DNA from: a virus
Lineage: Duplodnaviria; Heunggongvirae; Uroviricota; Caudoviricetes
Length of the DNA: 5,058 nucleotides
Virus record (IMG/VR): IMGVR_UViG_2693429560_000008
Direction: 5' to 3' (one strand)
Part shown: positions 1-5,058 of the stretch, in pieces
Layout: the number at the start of each line of letters is the position of its first letter
Numbering within the stretch: the stretch's first letter is position 1
Program-made: the position numbers and the translations under genes
Notes under the pieces: model-generated
Databases searched by the model: none
Told to the model about the DNA's origin: nothing
The model's input: the letters and a program-made list of their open reading frames with translations, nothing else

Positions 1-25
1 GGGAAAAATATCATCAGATGGCTGC

Positions 26-214
26 TTAAAAAAAGAACAAATGGTAGTGTCCGCTATTGCCAGTACACCTCAGGGTATAAGGGGTTATGGCCACCGGACT
101 ACCAAACGGCTGCCAGCCCTCTTTCAGTTTATGTGTCAGCTTTTCCGCAAGATCTGACGGCGGCGCCGCCCTGACAACATCATAGTGTTTAAATGCCATG
201 GTTCTTTCCACCAT
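26..214 (-). CDS. small prophage protein, possibly DUF1737-like
   Basis: Minus-strand ORF from the track. The second in-frame ATG (197-199) follows a GGAAAG RBS-like sequence, so the true start is probably 199 (MAFKHYDVV..., 57 aa). The stretch LAEKLTHKLKEGWQPFG resembles the short phage DUF1737 family from memory only. Confidence 0.45.
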   Translation of the reverse strand: MVERTMAFKHYDVVRAAPPSDLAEKLTHKLKEGWQPFGSPVAITPYTLRCTGNSGHYHLFFF

Positions 215-392
215 CTGAAAAATAATTCTTTAAAATACCTGACATGTAATACAGAAAAAACACAAAACCATACCTTAAATAAAAACCTGATTATCAAGCA
301 GATATGCATGGATAAACTACAAGACGAGATATAAACCACCCTGCATTTAAATAAACAATAAACAACATCAGAAAAATAATTCTGCTCTATGG

Positions 393-419
393 TTTACATT
401 CAAAAATATCATTTATACT
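393..419 (+). promoter_or_regulatory. putative sigma70-type promoter for the 111-aa ORF
   Basis: -35 TTTACA (393-398) and -10 TATACT (414-419) with a 15-nt spacer, about 40 nt upstream of ATG 460, in an AT-rich intergenic region. The short spacer makes this tentative. Confidence 0.3.
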
Positions 420-459
420 TTTCAGAACATCACCAGCAAGGCATAAACAAGGAAACTAA

Positions 460-795
460 ATGAAGTGGATTGTGATTGATACAGTTATCCAGCCATCATG
501 CGGAATATCTTTTTCAGTCATATGGAGTAAAATAAAATTAATAATCTGGTATCAATCGGATGCTTTCTTACCTCCTGAAAGTATATTTACACTGACTCAC
601 ACAGGCATCATGCTCAATAACAAAGTGCTACCTGTAACCATTTACAACGTAGTACCATTCAATAAAACATTCTGGAATTCAATCAAAAATAGCCAGGAAT
701 GCCCTACAAATACAGATAACGTATTGAATGAATGCTTTAATAACCGTTGCACTCTGCAAATATGTCCTTATGGACTAAAACAACAAAGTCCATAA
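460..795 (+). CDS. hypothetical protein, 111 aa, AT-rich cargo gene (copy 1)
   Basis: 336-nt ORF open in strongly AT-rich DNA where stops should be frequent. AGGA lies 6 nt before the ATG. An identical copy sits at 1834-2169. Five Cys residues; no family recognised. Confidence 0.5.
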
Positions 796-814
796 GGAGT
801 TTACTCACATCTGA

Positions 815-851
815 CAAAATCAATATAAACAGCCCCTCCGGAGAGGGGCTG
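815..851 (-). terminator. intrinsic terminator-like hairpin, minus-strand orientation
   Basis: Perfect 9-bp GC-rich stem (830-838 with 843-851) and 4-nt loop. On the minus strand it is followed by the U-rich run GUUUAUAUUGAUUUUG. Confidence 0.4.
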
Positions 852-1046
852 GAGAGTGGCGCTATGTGCCATTGCATGGTGCCGGGTGCCTCCCGGTGAA
901 TTCAGTACCAGCACCTGAATCCGCGATTATCCCATATACCTACTCGCTGATTGCCCCTCCGCACAGGGGGATTCACCATGCCAGTTTCTTTTAACAAACT
1001 CCCCGCAAAACAGACAACTGTCAACCGTCTGAATTGTGAGACATTT

Positions 1047-1072
1047 AAAAAAAAGGCCCGCAAAAGCGAGCC
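1047..1072 (-). terminator. intrinsic terminator just downstream of the copy-1 tRNA cluster
   Basis: On the minus strand: stem GGCUCGC, loop UUUU, stem GCGGGCC (one G-U pair), followed by eight U. Lies in the 36-bp copy-1-specific spacer; absent from copy 2. Confidence 0.5.
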
Positions 1073-1086
1073 AGGGAAAATAAGTG

Positions 1087-1163
1087 TGGCGCGTTGTACT
1101 GGATTCGAACCAGTGACCGATTGCTTAGAAGGCAATTGCTCTGTCCGGCTGAGCTAACAACGC
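1087..1163 (-). tRNA. argO: tRNA-Arg, anticodon TCT (copy 1)
   Basis: 77-nt cloverleaf folded by hand from the reverse complement: acceptor GCGTTGT/ACAACGC, T-loop TTCGAAT, anticodon loop CTTCTAA, encoded CCA. Symbol assigned from the Stx-phage ileZ-argN-argO order, from memory. Confidence 0.85.
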
Positions 1164-1176
1164 ATGATGCAGATAA

Positions 1177-1253
1177 TGGACCGCCATCGGGGACTTGAAC
1201 CCCGCGCAGCCAGCTTCGAAGGCTGGCGCTCTTTCCTGATGAGCTAATGGCGG
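1177..1253 (-). tRNA. argN: tRNA-Arg, anticodon TCG (copy 1)
   Basis: 77-nt cloverleaf: acceptor CCGCCAT/ATGGCGG, D-stem GCTC/GAGC, anticodon stem CCAGC/GCTGG with loop CTTCGAA, T-loop TTCAAGT, encoded CCA. Unusual C1-G72 first pair. Symbol from cluster order, less certain. Confidence 0.75.
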
Positions 1254-1260
1254 TATGTGA

Positions 1261-1336
1261 TGGTGGCCCTTGCTGGATTTGAACCAGCGACCTGGCGATT
1301 ATGAGTCGCTCGCTCTCACCACTGAGCTAAAGGGCC
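1261..1336 (-). tRNA. ileZ: tRNA-Ile2, anticodon CAT (lysidine type, reads AUA), copy 1
   Basis: 76-nt cloverleaf GGCCCTTTAGCTCAGTGG...CTCATAA...GGTTCAAATCC...AAGGGCCACCA, very close to E. coli ileX-type tRNA-Ile2 as recalled. Anticodon loop CTCATAA. Confidence 0.85.
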
Positions 1337-1376
1337 GGGAGCCGCATAATAACGACGCGTAATTAATTCTTCAATA

Positions 1377-1743
1377 TCATCCGTTCTGGCTGACTAAATC
1401 CTGTACTTCCCGAACCGTCTGCTCAAAACGTTCAGTCTCCAGCTCAACGCCAATTGCACGACGCCCGAGCGCCAGTGCCGCTTTCACTGTCGAACCCAAC
1501 CCCATGAAAAAATCTGCAATCAGGTCACCCGGACGACTGCTAGCGCTGATTATCTGCTGCAGCATTTCTGCCGGTTTTTCGCACGGATGTTTCCCGGGAT
1601 AGAACTGCACCGGTTTATGCGTCCACACATCGGTATACGGCACCTGCACCGTCACGCCAAAATACCGCCGCAGATGTTTATATTCACTCAGCAGCTCCGC
1701 ATACTGCCGGTTCAGTGAGGTATACGTATCCACCAGCTGGTGG
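1377..1743 (-). pseudogene. 3'-terminal fragment of the N6-adenine DNA methyltransferase gene
   Basis: Encodes only the last ~122 codons of the 352-aa protein (the 118-aa track ORF begins at an in-frame GTG at 1731-1733), identical to the full copy. Keeps the FxGxG AdoMet motif but lacks the N-terminal DPPY catalytic motif. Broken at 1743/1744 where block A copy 2 begins. Confidence 0.8.
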
Positions 1744-1766
1744 AGAAAAATAATTCTGCTCTATGG

Positions 1767-1793
1767 TTTACATTCAAAAATATCATTTATACT
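1767..1793 (+). promoter_or_regulatory. putative promoter for the 111-aa ORF, copy 2
   Basis: Identical to 393-419: TTTACA, 15 nt, TATACT. Confidence 0.3.
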
Positions 1794-1833
1794 TTTCAGA
1801 ACATCACCAGCAAGGCATAAACAAGGAAACTAA

Positions 1834-2169
1834 ATGAAGTGGATTGTGATTGATACAGTTATCCAGCCATCATGCGGAATATCTTTTTCAGTCATATGGA
1901 GTAAAATAAAATTAATAATCTGGTATCAATCGGATGCTTTCTTACCTCCTGAAAGTATATTTACACTGACTCACACAGGCATCATGCTCAATAACAAAGT
2001 GCTACCTGTAACCATTTACAACGTAGTACCATTCAATAAAACATTCTGGAATTCAATCAAAAATAGCCAGGAATGCCCTACAAATACAGATAACGTATTG
2101 AATGAATGCTTTAATAACCGTTGCACTCTGCAAATATGTCCTTATGGACTAAAACAACAAAGTCCATAA
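1834..2169 (+). CDS. hypothetical protein, 111 aa, AT-rich cargo gene (copy 2)
   Basis: Identical to the ORF at 460-795. Confidence 0.5.
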
Positions 2170-2188
2170 GGAGTTTACTCACATCTGA

Positions 2189-2225
2189 CAAAATCAATAT
2201 AAACAGCCCCTCCGGAGAGGGGCTG
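2189..2225 (-). terminator. intrinsic terminator-like hairpin, copy 2
   Basis: Identical to 815-851. Confidence 0.4.
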
Positions 2226-2449
2226 GAGAGTGGCGCTATGTGCCATTGCATGGTGCCGGGTGCCTCCCGGTGAATTCAGTACCAGCACCTGAATCCGCGA
2301 TTATCCCATATACCTACTCGCTGATTGCCCCTCCGCACAGGGGGATTCACCATGCCAGTTTCTTTTAACAAACTCCCCGCAAACCAGACAACAGTCAACC
2401 GCCTGAATTGTGAAGTATTTAAAAATTTCTCCCGCTAACTGATACCCGG

Positions 2450-2536
2450 CTAACAGTCTGGCGTTTTCTTTTTCAGCAACGGGAAAGCAACAACCACCAC
2501 ACCCGCCACCAGCACACCGTCAGCCAGCACTGACAT
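2450..2536 (-). CDS. possible 28-aa hydrophobic peptide
   Basis: Hand translation of the minus strand gives ATG...TAG: MSVLADGVLVAGVVVVAFPLLKKKTPDC, one hydrophobic stretch then KKK. No convincing RBS; could be a chance ORF in GC-rich low-complexity sequence. Confidence 0.15.
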   Translation of the reverse strand: MSVLADGVLVAGVVVVAFPLLKKKTPDC

Positions 2537-2616
2537 TATCCGGCTGCTGCAATGCCATTCACAAAAACAGTAAGCAATCACTTTTTACCGTAACAGGTGA
2601 TAATCCAGATATGTAT

Positions 2617-2970
2617 CTACCCCAGATGAGTAATCCGAAGTTCATCCATACCACAGGTCCTGGCTATTCTGTTGTACTCCTGAACAAGAGCAAATAATTC
2701 TGAATTAGCAACCATGAACTCATCGCAAACCCTCTGTATAGCATCACTATTCAGAATAATAACGTCTCTTCCCGAAAGACGATCAGGAGTACAGAACAAA
2801 ACTGTCAAACGGCTGAAGGCCTTTGCTCGTGCTGCATTGACTATATCAATACGCTGCCTAAGGATGAAACACCCCGACGCCTCATCAATATTCACTCTAC
2901 CCACACCATATGAATGATAAATATTTAATGCTGAAAAAACCATTAGACCGTATAACAAACACTCAATCAA
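2617..2970 (-). CDS. hypothetical protein, 108-117 aa, copy-2-specific cargo
   Basis: Minus-strand ORF from the track, which begins at a TTG. The first ATG is at 2941-2943 (MVFSALNIYHSYG...). Weak RBS. Lies directly downstream of the tRNA cluster in the slot where Stx phages carry stx, but has no resemblance to Stx A or B. Confidence 0.4.
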   Translation of the reverse strand: MIECLLYGLMVFSALNIYHSYGVGRVNIDEASGCFILRQRIDIVNAARAKAFSRLTVLFCTPDRLSGRDVIILNSDAIQRVCDEFMVANSELFALVQEYNRIARTCGMDELRITHLG

Positions 2971-3080
2971 TACTTAACAGAACTTTTATTTTTGACAAAC
3001 ATAAAATATTTTCAACAATATCCTGAGCCAGGTATATTTCAGTATAAGGCTCTGCCGGAAGGAATCTGGAAGAATGAATA

Positions 3081-3157
3081 TGGCGCGCTGTACTGGATTC
3101 GAACCAGTGACCGATTGCTTAGAAGGCAATTGCTCTGTCCGGCTGAGCTAACAACGC
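3081..3157 (-). tRNA. argO: tRNA-Arg, anticodon TCT (copy 2)
   Basis: Same as 1087-1163 except tRNA position 69 is G instead of A, turning the U4-A69 pair into a U4-G69 wobble. Confidence 0.85.
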
Positions 3158-3170
3158 ATGATGCAGATAA

Positions 3171-3247
3171 TGGACCGCCATCGGGGACTTGAACCCCGCG
3201 CAGCCAGCTTCGAAGGCTGGCGCTCTTTCCTGATGAGCTAATGGCGG
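3171..3247 (-). tRNA. argN: tRNA-Arg, anticodon TCG (copy 2)
   Basis: Identical to 1177-1253. Confidence 0.75.
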
Positions 3248-3254
3248 TATGTGA

Positions 3255-3330
3255 TGGTGGCCCTTGCTGGATTTGAACCAGCGACCTGGCGATTATGAGT
3301 CGCTCGCTCTCACCACTGAGCTAAAGGGCC
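3255..3330 (-). tRNA. ileZ: tRNA-Ile2, anticodon CAT (copy 2)
   Basis: Identical to 1261-1336. Confidence 0.85.
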
Positions 3331-3370
3331 GGGAGCCGCATAATAACGACGCGTAATTAATTCTTCAATA

Positions 3371-4429
3371 TCATCCGTTCTGGCTGACTAAATCCTGTAC
3401 TTCCCGAACCGTCTGCTCAAAACGTTCAGTCTCCAGCTCAACGCCAATTGCACGACGCCCGAGCGCCAGTGCCGCTTTCACTGTCGAACCCAACCCCATG
3501 AAAAAATCTGCAATCAGGTCACCCGGACGACTGCTAGCGCTGATTATCTGCTGCAGCATTTCTGCCGGTTTTTCGCACGGATGTTTCCCGGGATAGAACT
3601 GCACCGGTTTATGCGTCCACACATCGGTATACGGCACCTGCACCGTCACGCCAAAATACCGCCGCAGATGTTTATATTCACTCAGCAGCTCCGCATACTG
3701 CCGGTTCAGTGAGGTATACGTATCCACCAGCTGGTGGTGGAGCTTTTCCAGTTCACCACGCCGATGCTTCTCTTCTGCCACCCGGGCAAACAGCGCCTGT
3801 AATTTCAGATAATCGCTTTCATTCGGCAACTGCCACTGACCGGCACTGAACCAGTGCGACACCATGTTTTTCTTTCCTGTGGCATCTGCAATCTGTTTTG
3901 CCGTTATCCCCAGGGCAGCTCGCGCATCACGAAAGTAAGAAATCAGCGGGGCCATCACATGCTGTTTCAGTGCACTGCCCTTCGCCGCATACCCGGCATC
4001 TTTCGGACGATACGGCCCCTGATAATGTTCCGCGAACAGAATGCGCTCTGTGGCGGGGAAATACGCCCGCAGGCTTTCCTTGTTGCATCCGTTCCAGCGT
4101 CCGGACGGCTTCGCCCAGATAATATGGTTCAGCACACTGAAGCGTTCACGCATCATGATTTCGATATCAGATGCCAGGCGATGACCACAGAACAGGTAAA
4201 GACTTCCGGCAGGTTTCAGCACCCGCCAGAACTGCGCCAGACACTGGTCCAGCCACTTCAGGTAATCATCGTCGCCCTTCCACTGGTTATCCCAGCCCTC
4301 AGGCTTCACTTTAAAGTACGGCGGGTCCGTGACTATCAGGTCAACAGAATTTTCGGGTAACGACCGGATAAATTCCAGGCAGTCGGCGTTGATTAACTCA
4401 CAACTGGATATTTTTACAGTATTAAGCAT
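3371..4429 (-). CDS. N6-adenine DNA methyltransferase, beta-class, apparently orphan
   Basis: 352-aa ORF. Catalytic motif DPPY near the N-terminus (LIVTDPPY) and AdoMet-binding motif DFFMGLGST near the C-terminus; that motif order defines beta-class amino-methyltransferases. No restriction endonuclease partner in the window. Confidence 0.9.
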   Translation of the reverse strand: MLNTVKISSCELINADCLEFIRSLPENSVDLIVTDPPYFKVKPEGWDNQWKGDDDYLKWLDQCLAQFWRVLKPAGSLYLFCGHRLASDIEIMMRERFSVLNHIIWAKPSGRWNGCNKESLRAYFPATERILFAEHYQGPYRPKDAGYAAKGSALKQHVMAPLISYFRDARAALGITAKQIADATGKKNMVSHWFSAGQWQLPNESDYLKLQALFARVAEEKHRRGELEKLHHQLVDTYTSLNRQYAELLSEYKHLRRYFGVTVQVPYTDVWTHKPVQFYPGKHPCEKPAEMLQQIISASSRPGDLIADFFMGLGSTVKAALALGRRAIGVELETERFEQTVREVQDLVSQNG

Positions 4430-4461
4430 GGATCATTAAGCCTGTCTCTGATAGGCTCATT

Positions 4462-4551
4462 CTGCTTTTGCGCAAAGCAGTGGGCCTGAGGTTTGCTTGT
4501 GAACCCAACGCATGAGCAGATGGCTGGTGGGTGCCCCTAACACCCACCAGC
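4462..4551. promoter_or_regulatory. inverted repeats in the leader upstream of the methyltransferase gene
   Basis: Perfect 11-bp inverted repeat GCTGGTGGGTG / CACCCACCAGC (4523-4533, 4541-4551) with a 7-nt spacer, and a 7-bp inverted repeat CTGCTTT / AAAGCAG (4462-4468, 4474-4480). Neither is followed by a U-tract on either strand. Confidence 0.3.
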
Positions 4552-4565
4552 CGCCCATTTACCAC

Positions 4566-4593
4566 AAATAAAAAAGCCTTCACTGCGGAAGGC
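4566..4593 (-). terminator. intrinsic terminator after the 65-aa gene
   Basis: Minus strand: stem GCCUUC, loop CGCAGU, stem GAAGGC, followed by UUUUUUAUUU. The stem overlaps the stop codon of the 65-aa ORF. Confidence 0.5.
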
Positions 4594-4777
4594 GTCTGTA
4601 ACAACCGAACTGATAGTCTGCCAGACCCGCCATAACCAGCTGGGTCAGTATTAACTGGCAGCGTTCGCGTGAAAGGTAAGTATTCTGCGCTATCTCCCCG
4701 ACTGTCGCCGGTTCGGTAACGCTTAATTCATTAAACACCACTCTGGCGGTTTCTGTCATATCCTGCTGTTTTAGCAT
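4580..4777 (-). CDS. small putative DNA-binding protein, 65 aa
   Basis: AGGA sits 6 nt upstream of the ATG. The pattern TVGEIAQNTYLSRERCQLILTQLVMAGL is helix-turn-helix-like and weakly resembles FaeA/PapI-type winged-helix regulators, from memory. Confidence 0.5.
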   Translation of the reverse strand: MLKQQDMTETARVVFNELSVTEPATVGEIAQNTYLSRERCQLILTQLVMAGLADYQFGCYRRLPQ

Positions 4778-4896
4778 GTCTTTTCCTTTTCCGGTTAACG
4801 TGACACACCAATAACTCTTGTCGAAAAAGCCAGCAAGCTGAAAGACAGGTATTCACCGCCACCAGCGCGTTTACTGTACTGACGCGATTTCAGTCA

Positions 4897-4920
4897 TAAA
4901 AAACCCGCTCGGCGGCGGGT
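4897..4920 (-). terminator. tR'-like intrinsic terminator
   Basis: Minus strand: stem ACCCGC, loop CGCCGA, stem GCGGGU, followed by UUUUUU. About 65 nt downstream of the putative pR'. Confidence 0.55.
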
Positions 4921-4968
4921 TGTAGAAACTCTTCTAACGTCAGGCATAAAACGCCCATCGTTATGACG

Positions 4969-4996
4969 AATTTACCACAGATTCCGGAAAAATCAA
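4969..4996 (-). promoter_or_regulatory. pR'-like late promoter
   Basis: Minus strand: -35 TTGATT (plus 4991-4996), 16-nt spacer, extended -10 TGgTAAATT (plus 4969-4977). It sits between the end of the upstream ORF and the tR'-like terminator, the layout expected for a lambdoid pR'/tR' unit. Confidence 0.4.
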
Positions 4997-5001
4997 CCTT
5001 G

Positions 5002-5058
5002 TTACCTAGTTACCTTTTTTAACTGCCGCTCAGCCCATGCTTCTTCAATATCAAACCG
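5002..5058 (-). CDS. 3' end of an upstream minus-strand gene, possibly the Q antiterminator (partial)
   Basis: Two minus-strand frames stay open to the window edge: one ends ...RFDIEEAWAERQLKKVTR with stop at 5002-5004, the other ...GLILKKHGLSGS with stop at 5019-5021. The frame cannot be resolved. Identity is inferred only from position upstream of the pR'-like promoter. Confidence 0.2.
   Translation of the reverse strand, partial: RFDIEEAWAERQLKKVTR

Follow-up and report, generated by a model that had tools for sequence, protein, structure and literature searches.

The window, that is, the whole stretch of 5,058 nucleotides that was analysed, appears to derive from a draft Shigella sonnei assembly and to cover, in lambdoid prophage remnants, the region from Q to lysis (the 'stx position'). 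Its layout is X[A-j-B'][A-C-B]D (offsets 1374 and 1994 nt), and its segments trace to two remnants, which we call locus 1 and locus 2. The minus strand is the phage late direction. The following features were identified.

1-73: end of a multicopy IS of the IS3 family, which cuts the nanS-p/DUF1737 gene and has 100% matches at several IS ends (contigs L005 and L008).
26-214, minus strand: nanS-p/DUF1737 stub of 57-62 aa, cut short by the IS end.
460-795, plus strand: iraM-like gene, copy 1, in block A copy 1 (370-1009).
880-1009 and again 2254-2383: R1, a 130-nt exact repeat common to locus 1 and locus 2.
1010-1094, minus strand: linker j, of the locus 1 type and short (47-nt linker), with linked SNPs at 1010, 1019, 1028 and 1094.
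1087-1336, minus strand: tRNA cluster copy 1, with Arg(tct) at 1087-1163, Arg(tcg) at 1177-1253 and a tRNA with a CAT anticodon at 1261-1336.
1377-1733, minus strand: methylase 3' fragment of 118 aa with a GTG start, equal to residues 235-352 of the intact protein.
1730-1743, both strands: 14-nt perfect palindrome CCACCAGCTGGTGG, made up of two overlapping opposed Chi octamers (plus strand 1736-1743, minus strand 1730-1737).
1834-2169, plus strand: iraM-like gene, copy 2, in block A copy 2 (1744-2383), identical to 460-795.
2415-3067, minus strand: linker C, of the locus 2 type, 653 nt, with a DUF3927 gene (2450-2581, minus strand) and ORF117 (2617-2970, minus strand).
3081-3330, minus strand: tRNA cluster copy 2 with the same three tRNAs, of which 3089-3157 (tRNA-Arg tct) is a 69-nt exact inter-locus repeat.
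3371-4429, minus strand: intact beta-class N6/N4 DNA methyltransferase of 352 aa (PF01555, 144 bits against a cutoff of 26.7).
3724-3737: second occurrence of the Chi/Chi palindrome, within the intact methylase gene, with the plus strand Chi at 3730-3737.
4580-4777, minus strand: 65-aa gene.
Window end beyond the 65-aa gene, minus strand: Q, upstream edge only.

The iraM-like gene matches the NF007393 IraM profile with 162 bits (cutoff 121) and is assigned to IraM by sequence only. The linker C genes match phrog_2873 and phrog_1470, and linker j carries a terminator-like hairpin at 1055-1072. RefSeq relatives annotate the CAT-anticodon tRNA at 1261-1336 as tRNA-Ile. The IS end at 1-73 is likely the contig boundary. 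A promoter scan returned 9 promoter-like sites against a shuffle mean of 7.8, which is chance level; a terminator scan returned 11 terminator-like sites against 4.8 in shuffles, and none of these touches the joint described below. The G+C content of 370-879 is 36%.

We observed that the methylase gene is present twice, once intact and once as a 3' fragment. The intact protein matched profile positions 1-219, with DPPY at residues 35-38 and FMGLGST (FxGxG) near the C-terminus, and so has the beta-class PF01555 architecture, with DPPY (motif IV) N-terminal and the AdoMet motif I C-terminal. It also matched phrog_67 and phrog_6025, and entries for the exact 352-aa protein are found in 4,314 blocks of the searched collection. 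The match of the 118-aa fragment to the Pfam N6_N4_Mtase profile (221 positions) is confined to positions 134-220; motif I (FMGLGST) is kept and DPPY is absent, and the fragment does not qualify as a beta-class methylase. This agrees with the initial annotation, which had described a remnant that keeps the AdoMet motif and cannot methylate. The fragment is predicted to be a catalytically dead remnant and not an enzyme. It lies in the late-transcript orientation with GTG as its sole start and, being non-catalytic, would give rise to an AdoMet-binding stub at best. The same 118 aa are on record as CSP98475.1, CSS27422.1 and SJI92518.1, all from Shigella sonnei. One of the first two belongs to a window-type contig and the other to a contig with a run of Ns (L004).

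The joint that truncates this copy lies between positions 1743 and 1744, between GCTGGTGG and AGAAAAAT (feature 1736-1751, plus strand); a slash marks the break in what follows. The initial annotation had quoted the junction and its intact counterpart, and both were recovered when the window was re-read: positions 1730-1758 are CCACCAGCTGGTGG/AGAAAAATAATTCTG, or GTATCCACCAGCTGGTGG/AGAAAAATAATTCTG with four more nucleotides on the left (1726-1758), and the intact gene is CCACCAGCTGGTGG/TGGAGCTTTTCC at 3724-3749, or GTATCCACCAGCTGGTGG/TGGAGCTTTTCC from 3720 (3720-3749). When the joint was aligned with its parental regions, as had been proposed there as a check, identity ended abruptly on both sides. 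The left flank, block B, is 100% identical between 1095-1743 and 3089-3737 (649 nt), and the right flank, block A with the iraM-like gene, is 100% identical between 1744-2383 and 370-1009 (640 nt). In both comparisons identity breaks off at one phosphodiester bond, 1743/1744. The 649-nt left flank contains three tRNAs and the methylase 3' end. The two parental breakpoints are as follows.

3737/3738 (..GGTGG/TGGAGC..): parental breakpoint 1, in the intact methylase gene.
369/370 (..AACATC/AGAAAAAT..): parental breakpoint 2, upstream of the iraM-like gene and 90 nt from its start codon.

In register, the left flanks of 3737/3738 and 369/370 agree at 0 of 5 bases and the right flanks at 2 of 5; within +/-40 nt the best local alignment has a score of 6, where shuffles give 6.3 +/- 1.1. 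A 2-nt AG overlap can be obtained at the joint if one TGG unit is lost as well. We considered a parental allele with two TGG units, which would account for these 2 nt of microhomology and for a natural fork of the assembly graph at 3738, and rejected it: a search with a synthetic TGG-less query found no such allele in 5,426 complete E. coli genomes or in 14 fetched relatives, and the best matches all carried a 3-nt gap. All 14 fetched relatives read ...GCTGGTGG TGG(A/G)GC at the methylase site, and both parental sites are contiguous in each of them. Because there is no TGG-less allele, the strict microhomology is 0 nt. The earlier figure of 2-5 bp can thus stand as an upper bound only, the actual value being 0-2. 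The break had also been placed within a TGG repeat; TGG does occur at the site, and this description understates the position, which is exactly the 3' end of a Chi site within a 14-nt palindrome. By breakpoint criteria the joint is homology-free and of the illegitimate type, as had been claimed: local alignment stays at the shuffle level, and neither extended homology nor a recombinase core was found at the breakpoints.

To place the window in a chromosomal context, its segments were compared with S. sonnei 53G, in which each matches one of two loci with 0 mismatches.

Window 1-1009: locus 2.
Window 880-1743: locus 1.
Window 1744-3157: locus 2.
Window 3089-5058: locus 1.

The path therefore runs from locus 2 to locus 1, across the junction to locus 2 and again to locus 1, at 100% identity throughout. 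In copy 1 the switch from locus 2 to locus 1 falls in the 130-nt repeat, with locus 2 mismatching from 1010 on and locus 1 mismatching until 879; in copy 2 it falls in the 69-nt tRNA-Arg repeat at 3089-3157. The order of the locus 1 remnant is Q - 65 aa - MTase - tRNAs - j, and that of locus 2 is IS - DUF1737 - iraM - DUF3927 - tRNAs* - Q'. Exact repeats of 130, 87, 69 and 23 nt are common to both remnants. Closed S. sonnei genomes have one copy each of segments 370-879 and 1377-1743. Exact matches to the 352-aa methylase and to the 57-aa DUF1737 stub are found at two separate sites of the same closed chromosomes. These lie in the same orientation at 1.86 and 2.53 Mb in CP104423.1 and at 2.10 and 1.32 Mb in HE616528.1 (S. 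sonnei 53G), and the inter-locus distance in closed S. sonnei genomes is 0.67-0.78 Mb. The initial annotation had read the site as a duplication junction; a simple duplication within one prophage does not hold, as the window is a 100% mosaic of two S. sonnei remnants. Linkers j and C are unrelated in sequence, and the two units do not go back to one parental stretch.

The mosaic also bears on how far the order of the window can be taken at face value. Were both hybrids real, each would join loci about 0.7 Mb apart in the manner of a deletion, and this would be incompatible with a duplication-type joint between them, so that at least part of the window order is the path choice of the assembler. 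A sibling contig (L003) from a second assembly (GCA_900160015.1) has a window-like architecture and makes its second switch from locus 2 to locus 1 later, in an 87-nt repeat at 3250-3336. Because this contig turns elsewhere, the order 'A-j-B / A-C-B' is read as an assembler path. At least in part, the apparent tandem structure would thus be such a path or the product of extra homologous events.

We next asked where else the joint occurs. The sibling contig reads GCTGGTGG-N-C-AGAAAAAT at this point, where C is the base at 369 of the undisturbed locus. The N is the sign of a scaffold gap and the C is parental, which indicates that the adjacency was not read through in that assembly. A third, unrelated submission (GCA_001688485.1, LYEP01000239.1) contains a 570-nt contig (L031), found by direct look-up of the correct 121-aa partial protein, that ends exactly at 1743. 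Its other end, at 1174, lies 2 nt from 1172-1194, where locus 1 equals locus 2, and fits no block border of the window. A short contig with both such ends has the look of a collapsed two-copy segment. Position 1743 is accordingly the same end point in three assemblies (the window, L003 and L031). Three further contigs (L032-L034) end at 1709-1711, about 33 nt before the break, through end-trimming at the same fork or for unrelated reasons. Four truncated contigs are on record, of which 3 are meaningful: the 118-aa fragment accounts for three, including the contig with the N run, and the 121-aa partial protein for one. They are rare beside the 4,314 intact methylase blocks, which argues that the break is not a systematic product of repeats common to all S. 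sonnei. Two candidates were discarded on inspection. Contig L004 (GCA_001260575.1), at first taken for a second truncated gene, holds an intact gene with a run of about 115 Ns, 38 nt past the palindrome, and P0015, a member of the 121-aa cluster on a 367-nt contig, does not end at 1743 and is an internal fragment spanning the site.

The initial annotation had suggested looking for the same joint in other genomes. A 200-nt query did not find it in 5,426 complete E. coli genomes, and the closed S. sonnei-type loci that were fetched lack it. As an exact 24-mer it was not found in GTDB species representatives, IMG/VR or JGI metagenomes, nor was it found when the whole window was compared with 50,697 phage records. 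Part of the reason for its absence from these collections is that they do not include Shigella.

The N and the parental C in the sibling contig meant that an assembly artefact, which the initial annotation had missed, had to be weighed. Under this explanation no DNA molecule would carry the joint; contigs of the two remnants would have been abutted and a single-N gap wrongly 'closed'. Several hallmarks of an artefact are present. There is a gap character exactly at the joint in the sibling contig, followed by the parental C; the path alternates between loci 0.67-0.78 Mb apart, and does so only inside exact repeats, which differ from one draft to the other; and the joint is in no closed genome searched. 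In addition, the copies of blocks A and B are 100% identical to each other while relatives in the databases are about 3% divergent from the window, and a scaffold gap in the same gene is seen in L004, which is the same kind of assembly. Against this, the single-copy segments 370-879 and 1377-1743 give no cause for ends at 1743 and 370, or for being used twice, unless there is a real branch. In three assemblies, one of them an unrelated submission, the end point falls on the identical nucleotide, and the joint is absent from very many other S. sonnei assemblies with the same repeats, in which a systematic artefact should be common. The break point is thus neither irreproducible nor systematic. 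Gap-closers need overlapping reads to remove an N, which likewise counts against an artefact. For a graph assembler to pass through blocks A and B a second time, the reads would have to contain an edge from B to A. The N and C of the sibling contig would then be what a gap-closer left at a 50:50 branch, and the window the version in which the gap was closed by reads. We regard an artefact as unlikely, though as a serious contender. Taken over all models together, the joint is probably real, and we lean, by a little, towards a rare, lineage-specific and non-homologous joint produced by illegitimate joining or template switching. The reads spanning the joint, its true local structure and the enzymology are what we infer here.

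The model that follows from the initial annotation, an in situ tandem duplication in one prophage through a single illegitimate crossover, with the window order exact, fares less well and is improbable. It fits the reading X[A-j-B'][A-C-B]D, and both arrangements are natural in E. coli prophages, A-j-B in 631 genomes and A-C-B-D in 567, where they are single-copy and about 97% identical to the window. However, the units differ in their linkers (j and C, with linked SNPs), so that at least one further event is needed, and each unit is a hybrid with a locus 2 left part and a locus 1 right part at 100% identity. The two deletion-type hybrids, if both real, would clash with the duplication-type joint between them, the hybrid point differs in the sibling contig, and the start of the 570-nt contig at 1174 matches no block border.

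Somewhat less probable still is a direct tandem duplication that spans about 0.7 Mb, beginning upstream of iraM in locus 2 and ending at Chi in the locus 1 methylase gene, and that arose by one-step aberrant restart of a broken fork, with the small tandem as an assembler shortcut. In the orientation of the window, locus 2 is upstream of locus 1, and locus 1 on the left joined to locus 2 on the right is the signature of a duplication for which a single event suffices. Large duplications of this kind are unstable, however, which counts against the model and makes it unlikely that one would be shared by several sequenced isolates, and the left end of the 570-nt contig at 1174 is left unexplained. 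Site-specific recombination or transposition, in which a recombinase or an IS moved block A or the methylase fragment, is hardly credible: S. sonnei is IS-rich, the window begins with an IS end (1-73), and the block A border is straddled by a direct repeat of 21 nt (209-229 and 363-383), but that repeat is also found in undisturbed relatives, no shared core, terminal inverted repeat or target-site duplication was found at 369/370 and 3737/3738 (in line with the initial annotation, which had argued against site-specific recombination), 369/370 is uninterrupted in the 14 relatives, the window contains no recombinase gene, and no other site was found to hold the block as an independent insertion with identical ends.

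We then examined the position of the joint relative to the surrounding sequence. The last 8 bases to the left of the break are GCTGGTGG, the E. coli Chi site, and the break falls right after its final G. The last base of the palindrome at 1730-1743 is the breakpoint, and its 3' half is the plus strand Chi. The palindrome is the only perfect one in the window with arms of at least 7, and the joint lengthens it to 16 nt (1729-1744). As single-stranded DNA it would form a hairpin of -5 to -6.8 kcal/mol (z of about -2.4), a modest strength that is suggestive only. The retained DNA lies on the 5' side of the plus strand Chi, which is the active orientation and the one expected for an end trimmed by RecBCD. 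There are 2 plus strand Chi sites in 3,716 non-redundant nt, and by our arithmetic the chance that a random break falls exactly at the 3' end of Chi is about 5e-4, and within 0-6 nt of it about 4e-3. Chi is locally dense, with 6 octamers in 3.7 kb. The coincidence of break, Chi and palindrome is a single case and was spotted post hoc.

This coincidence could be read as a RecBCD stop at Chi or as a break upon completion of the palindrome, and we prefer neither. In vitro, RecBCD nicks 4-6 nt 3' of Chi, not at 0 nt. That the joint is the fossil of a Chi-arrested RecBCD product, missed by homologous repair and captured at a non-homologous site, is a rather doubtful proposal.

For the joint itself, the parts brought together would be the 3' part of the locus 1 methylase gene up to the last G of Chi, and locus 2 from 90 nt upstream of the iraM-like gene. 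In a first step, a free or nascent 3' end with locus 1 sequence would be fixed at ...GCTGGTGG-3', either because RecBCD degraded a broken end as far as a correctly oriented Chi or because synthesis stalled at the completed palindrome. In a second step, this 3' end would be linked to an unrelated A+T-rich site or serve as a primer there, with 0-2 nt paired. Such an event would count as illegitimate recombination, either template-switch (MMBIR-like) or homology-facilitated, and the other side of the locus 1 patch would be anchored in one of the short exact inter-locus repeats (130, 87, 69 or 23 nt). The outcome would be an extra, dead methylase fragment and a duplication of the tRNA genes, the iraM-like gene or both.

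Three models might accommodate this event. In model (a) it is the direct duplication discussed above, in which some 0.7 Mb between locus 2 and locus 1 is doubled in one step. In model (b) a locus 1 patch (j - tRNAs - methylase 3' end) would be copied into locus 2 via the 130-nt repeat, exit at the Chi end and re-enter locus 2 upstream of iraM, with a net gain of 1374 nt. Model (c) is like (b) with entry inside the tRNA cluster, which would give a net gain of 1994 nt and a duplicated linker C; the left end of the 570-nt contig at 1174 favours it. The same non-homologous joint and the same putative step would be common to all three.

The event can be compared with systems already described. Illegitimate recombination in E. 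coli is driven by resected 3' overhangs (PMC3375238), and the lambda bio/Spi- type is described as starting after replication trouble and as suppressed by RecQ, ExoI and SSB (PMC3375238; PMC11372144). Our joint resembles aberrant lambda excision, as scored in the lambda bio/Spi- assay, in being prophage-borne with little or no homology; here, however, each partner is a prophage remnant, a duplication or patch results in place of an excision, and the event is known from sequence alone. Homology-independent events in the lambda bio/Spi- system are ascribed to DNA gyrase. RecBCD halts degradation of the 3'-ended strand at a correctly oriented Chi (PMC3375238, PMC6393298). The retained end, 5'-GCTGGTGG-3', has the orientation for RecBCD entry from the 5' side of the methylase gene, in keeping with Chi-regulated processing. 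In contrast, Chi normally leads to RecA-dependent homologous repair whereas the partner here is non-homologous, the end lies at Chi+0 and not at Chi+4-6, and the palindrome offers an independent explanation.

Homology-facilitated illegitimate recombination (HFIR) is documented in E. coli (PMC3240628). With MMBIR, FoSTeS and HFIR the window would share a patch taken from an ectopic locus of partial homology, with one side in short exact homology and the other at 0-2 nt. It differs in that different assemblies place the homologous side differently and in that there is no sign of incoming linear DNA. The gene order is the same as in the Q - methylase - ileZ/argN/argO - stx region of Stx phages, with about 93% nucleotide identity to Stx2a phages and phiP27 over the methylase and tRNAs. 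Here there is no stx, however; its position is taken by DUF3927 and ORF117 in locus 2, or by the terminator hairpin only in locus 1, and both S. sonnei remnants are IS-cut.

In conclusion, the class of mechanism is already known and no new mechanism is involved: this would be another case of prophage remnants joined illegitimately, the dead methylase fragment being what is left over, and a specialist would not be surprised by it. It is also a cautionary case, in which a clean 'tandem duplication' in a 5-kb draft contig is a walk through two loci 0.7 Mb apart. A real doubling of tRNA or iraM dosage depends on the local structure, and claims about copy number or gene dosage (extra tRNAs, extra iraM) should not rest on the contig alone. 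The one element that deserves a wider survey is the Chi palindrome coincidence. If the fossil reading were true, Chi sites, and above all back-to-back Chi palindromes in prophage genes, would be favoured end points for illegitimate rearrangements and for mosaic joints between lambdoid prophages. The nucleotide-exact hit on a Chi palindrome thus leads to a testable hypothesis, namely that the ends of enterobacterial prophage rearrangements may be enriched at Chi 3' ends, a question that could be answered from the large public genome collections for E. coli and Shigella.

The density of Chi octamers across the window is high. We counted eight in positions 1-5058, or six in the 3.7 kb of non-redundant sequence. 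The two S. sonnei prophage remnants from which the window is assembled differ in this respect, with 0.77 Chi per kb in locus 1 versus 0.25 in locus 2. Besides the Chi palindrome at 3724-3737 in the intact methylase gene, whose copy at 1730-1743 ends exactly at the joint 1743|1744, we observed a structured element upstream of the methylase:

4522-4552, inverted repeat with 12-bp arms, GGCTGGTGGGTG-(7 nt)-CACCCACCAGCC, in the spacer that separates the 65-aa gene from the start of the methylase

This repeat is strong (-16.7 kcal/mol, z = -5.2, folded as DNA), and each arm carries one Chi octamer, at 4523-4530 on the plus strand and at 4544-4551 on the minus strand. Since both arms contain Chi, the repeat forms a second back-to-back Chi pair, less than 800 nt from the first.

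The border of block A, the duplicated iraM-like segment, is placed at 370 and falls inside the second copy of a short repeat:

209-229 and 363-383, direct repeat of 21 nt, CAnCATCnGAAAAATAATTCT, copies 154 nt apart

This repeat is not a product of the rearrangement, because its core is also found, once and at the site equivalent to 371-383, in L001 and L002, two relatives in which this region is undisturbed.

The two copies of tRNA-Arg(tct) differ at a single site, 1094 versus 3088, in the acceptor stem. Copy 1 has T, the locus 1 allele, giving a perfect stem, whereas copy 2 has C, the locus 2 allele, giving a G-U pair. This polymorphism is linked with the type of linker. Essentially all of the short linker j consists of a GC-rich hairpin and its T tract, which are absent from the long linker C:

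1055-1072, minus strand, terminator-like site immediately downstream of the tRNA genes, made up of a GC-rich hairpin and a T8 run after it

At locus 2 itself (L017/L015, 6201-6506), the tRNA cluster is diverged, with 87% identity to that of locus 1, and its middle tRNA-Arg is strongly different. Locus 2 has neither the methylase nor the 65-aa gene, and its tRNAs directly adjoin a homologue of window 4896-5058.

Two small genes occupy the position at which Stx phages carry stx:

2617-2970, minus strand, ORF117, matching phrog_2873 (3.8e-70; function label: unknown), with no family found in Pfam or NCBIfam
2450-2581, minus strand, DUF3927 gene of 43 aa, matching phrog_1470, labelled TciB-like inhibition of cell division or resistance to colicin

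The window opens with a multicopy element:

1-73, end of an IS3-family element, matching several IS ends of closed S. sonnei genomes at 100%

This element truncates the gene of a nanS-p type esterase, DUF1737-SASA-DUF6645, whose product has 617 aa in relatives. What is left is a DUF1737 stub of 57-62 aa (26-214, minus strand), and 888 blocks of the collection list the stub in exactly this form.

L032-L034, three further draft contigs of S. sonnei, end at window 1709-1711, ~33 nt short of the end of the Chi palindrome. Two members of the protein cluster, P0006 and P0012, on five additional contigs, start 2-3 residues further in, which suggests similar ends on those contigs. The ends at 1709-1711 may come from contigs trimmed back from the fork at 1743, or from a separate break that is unrelated to it.
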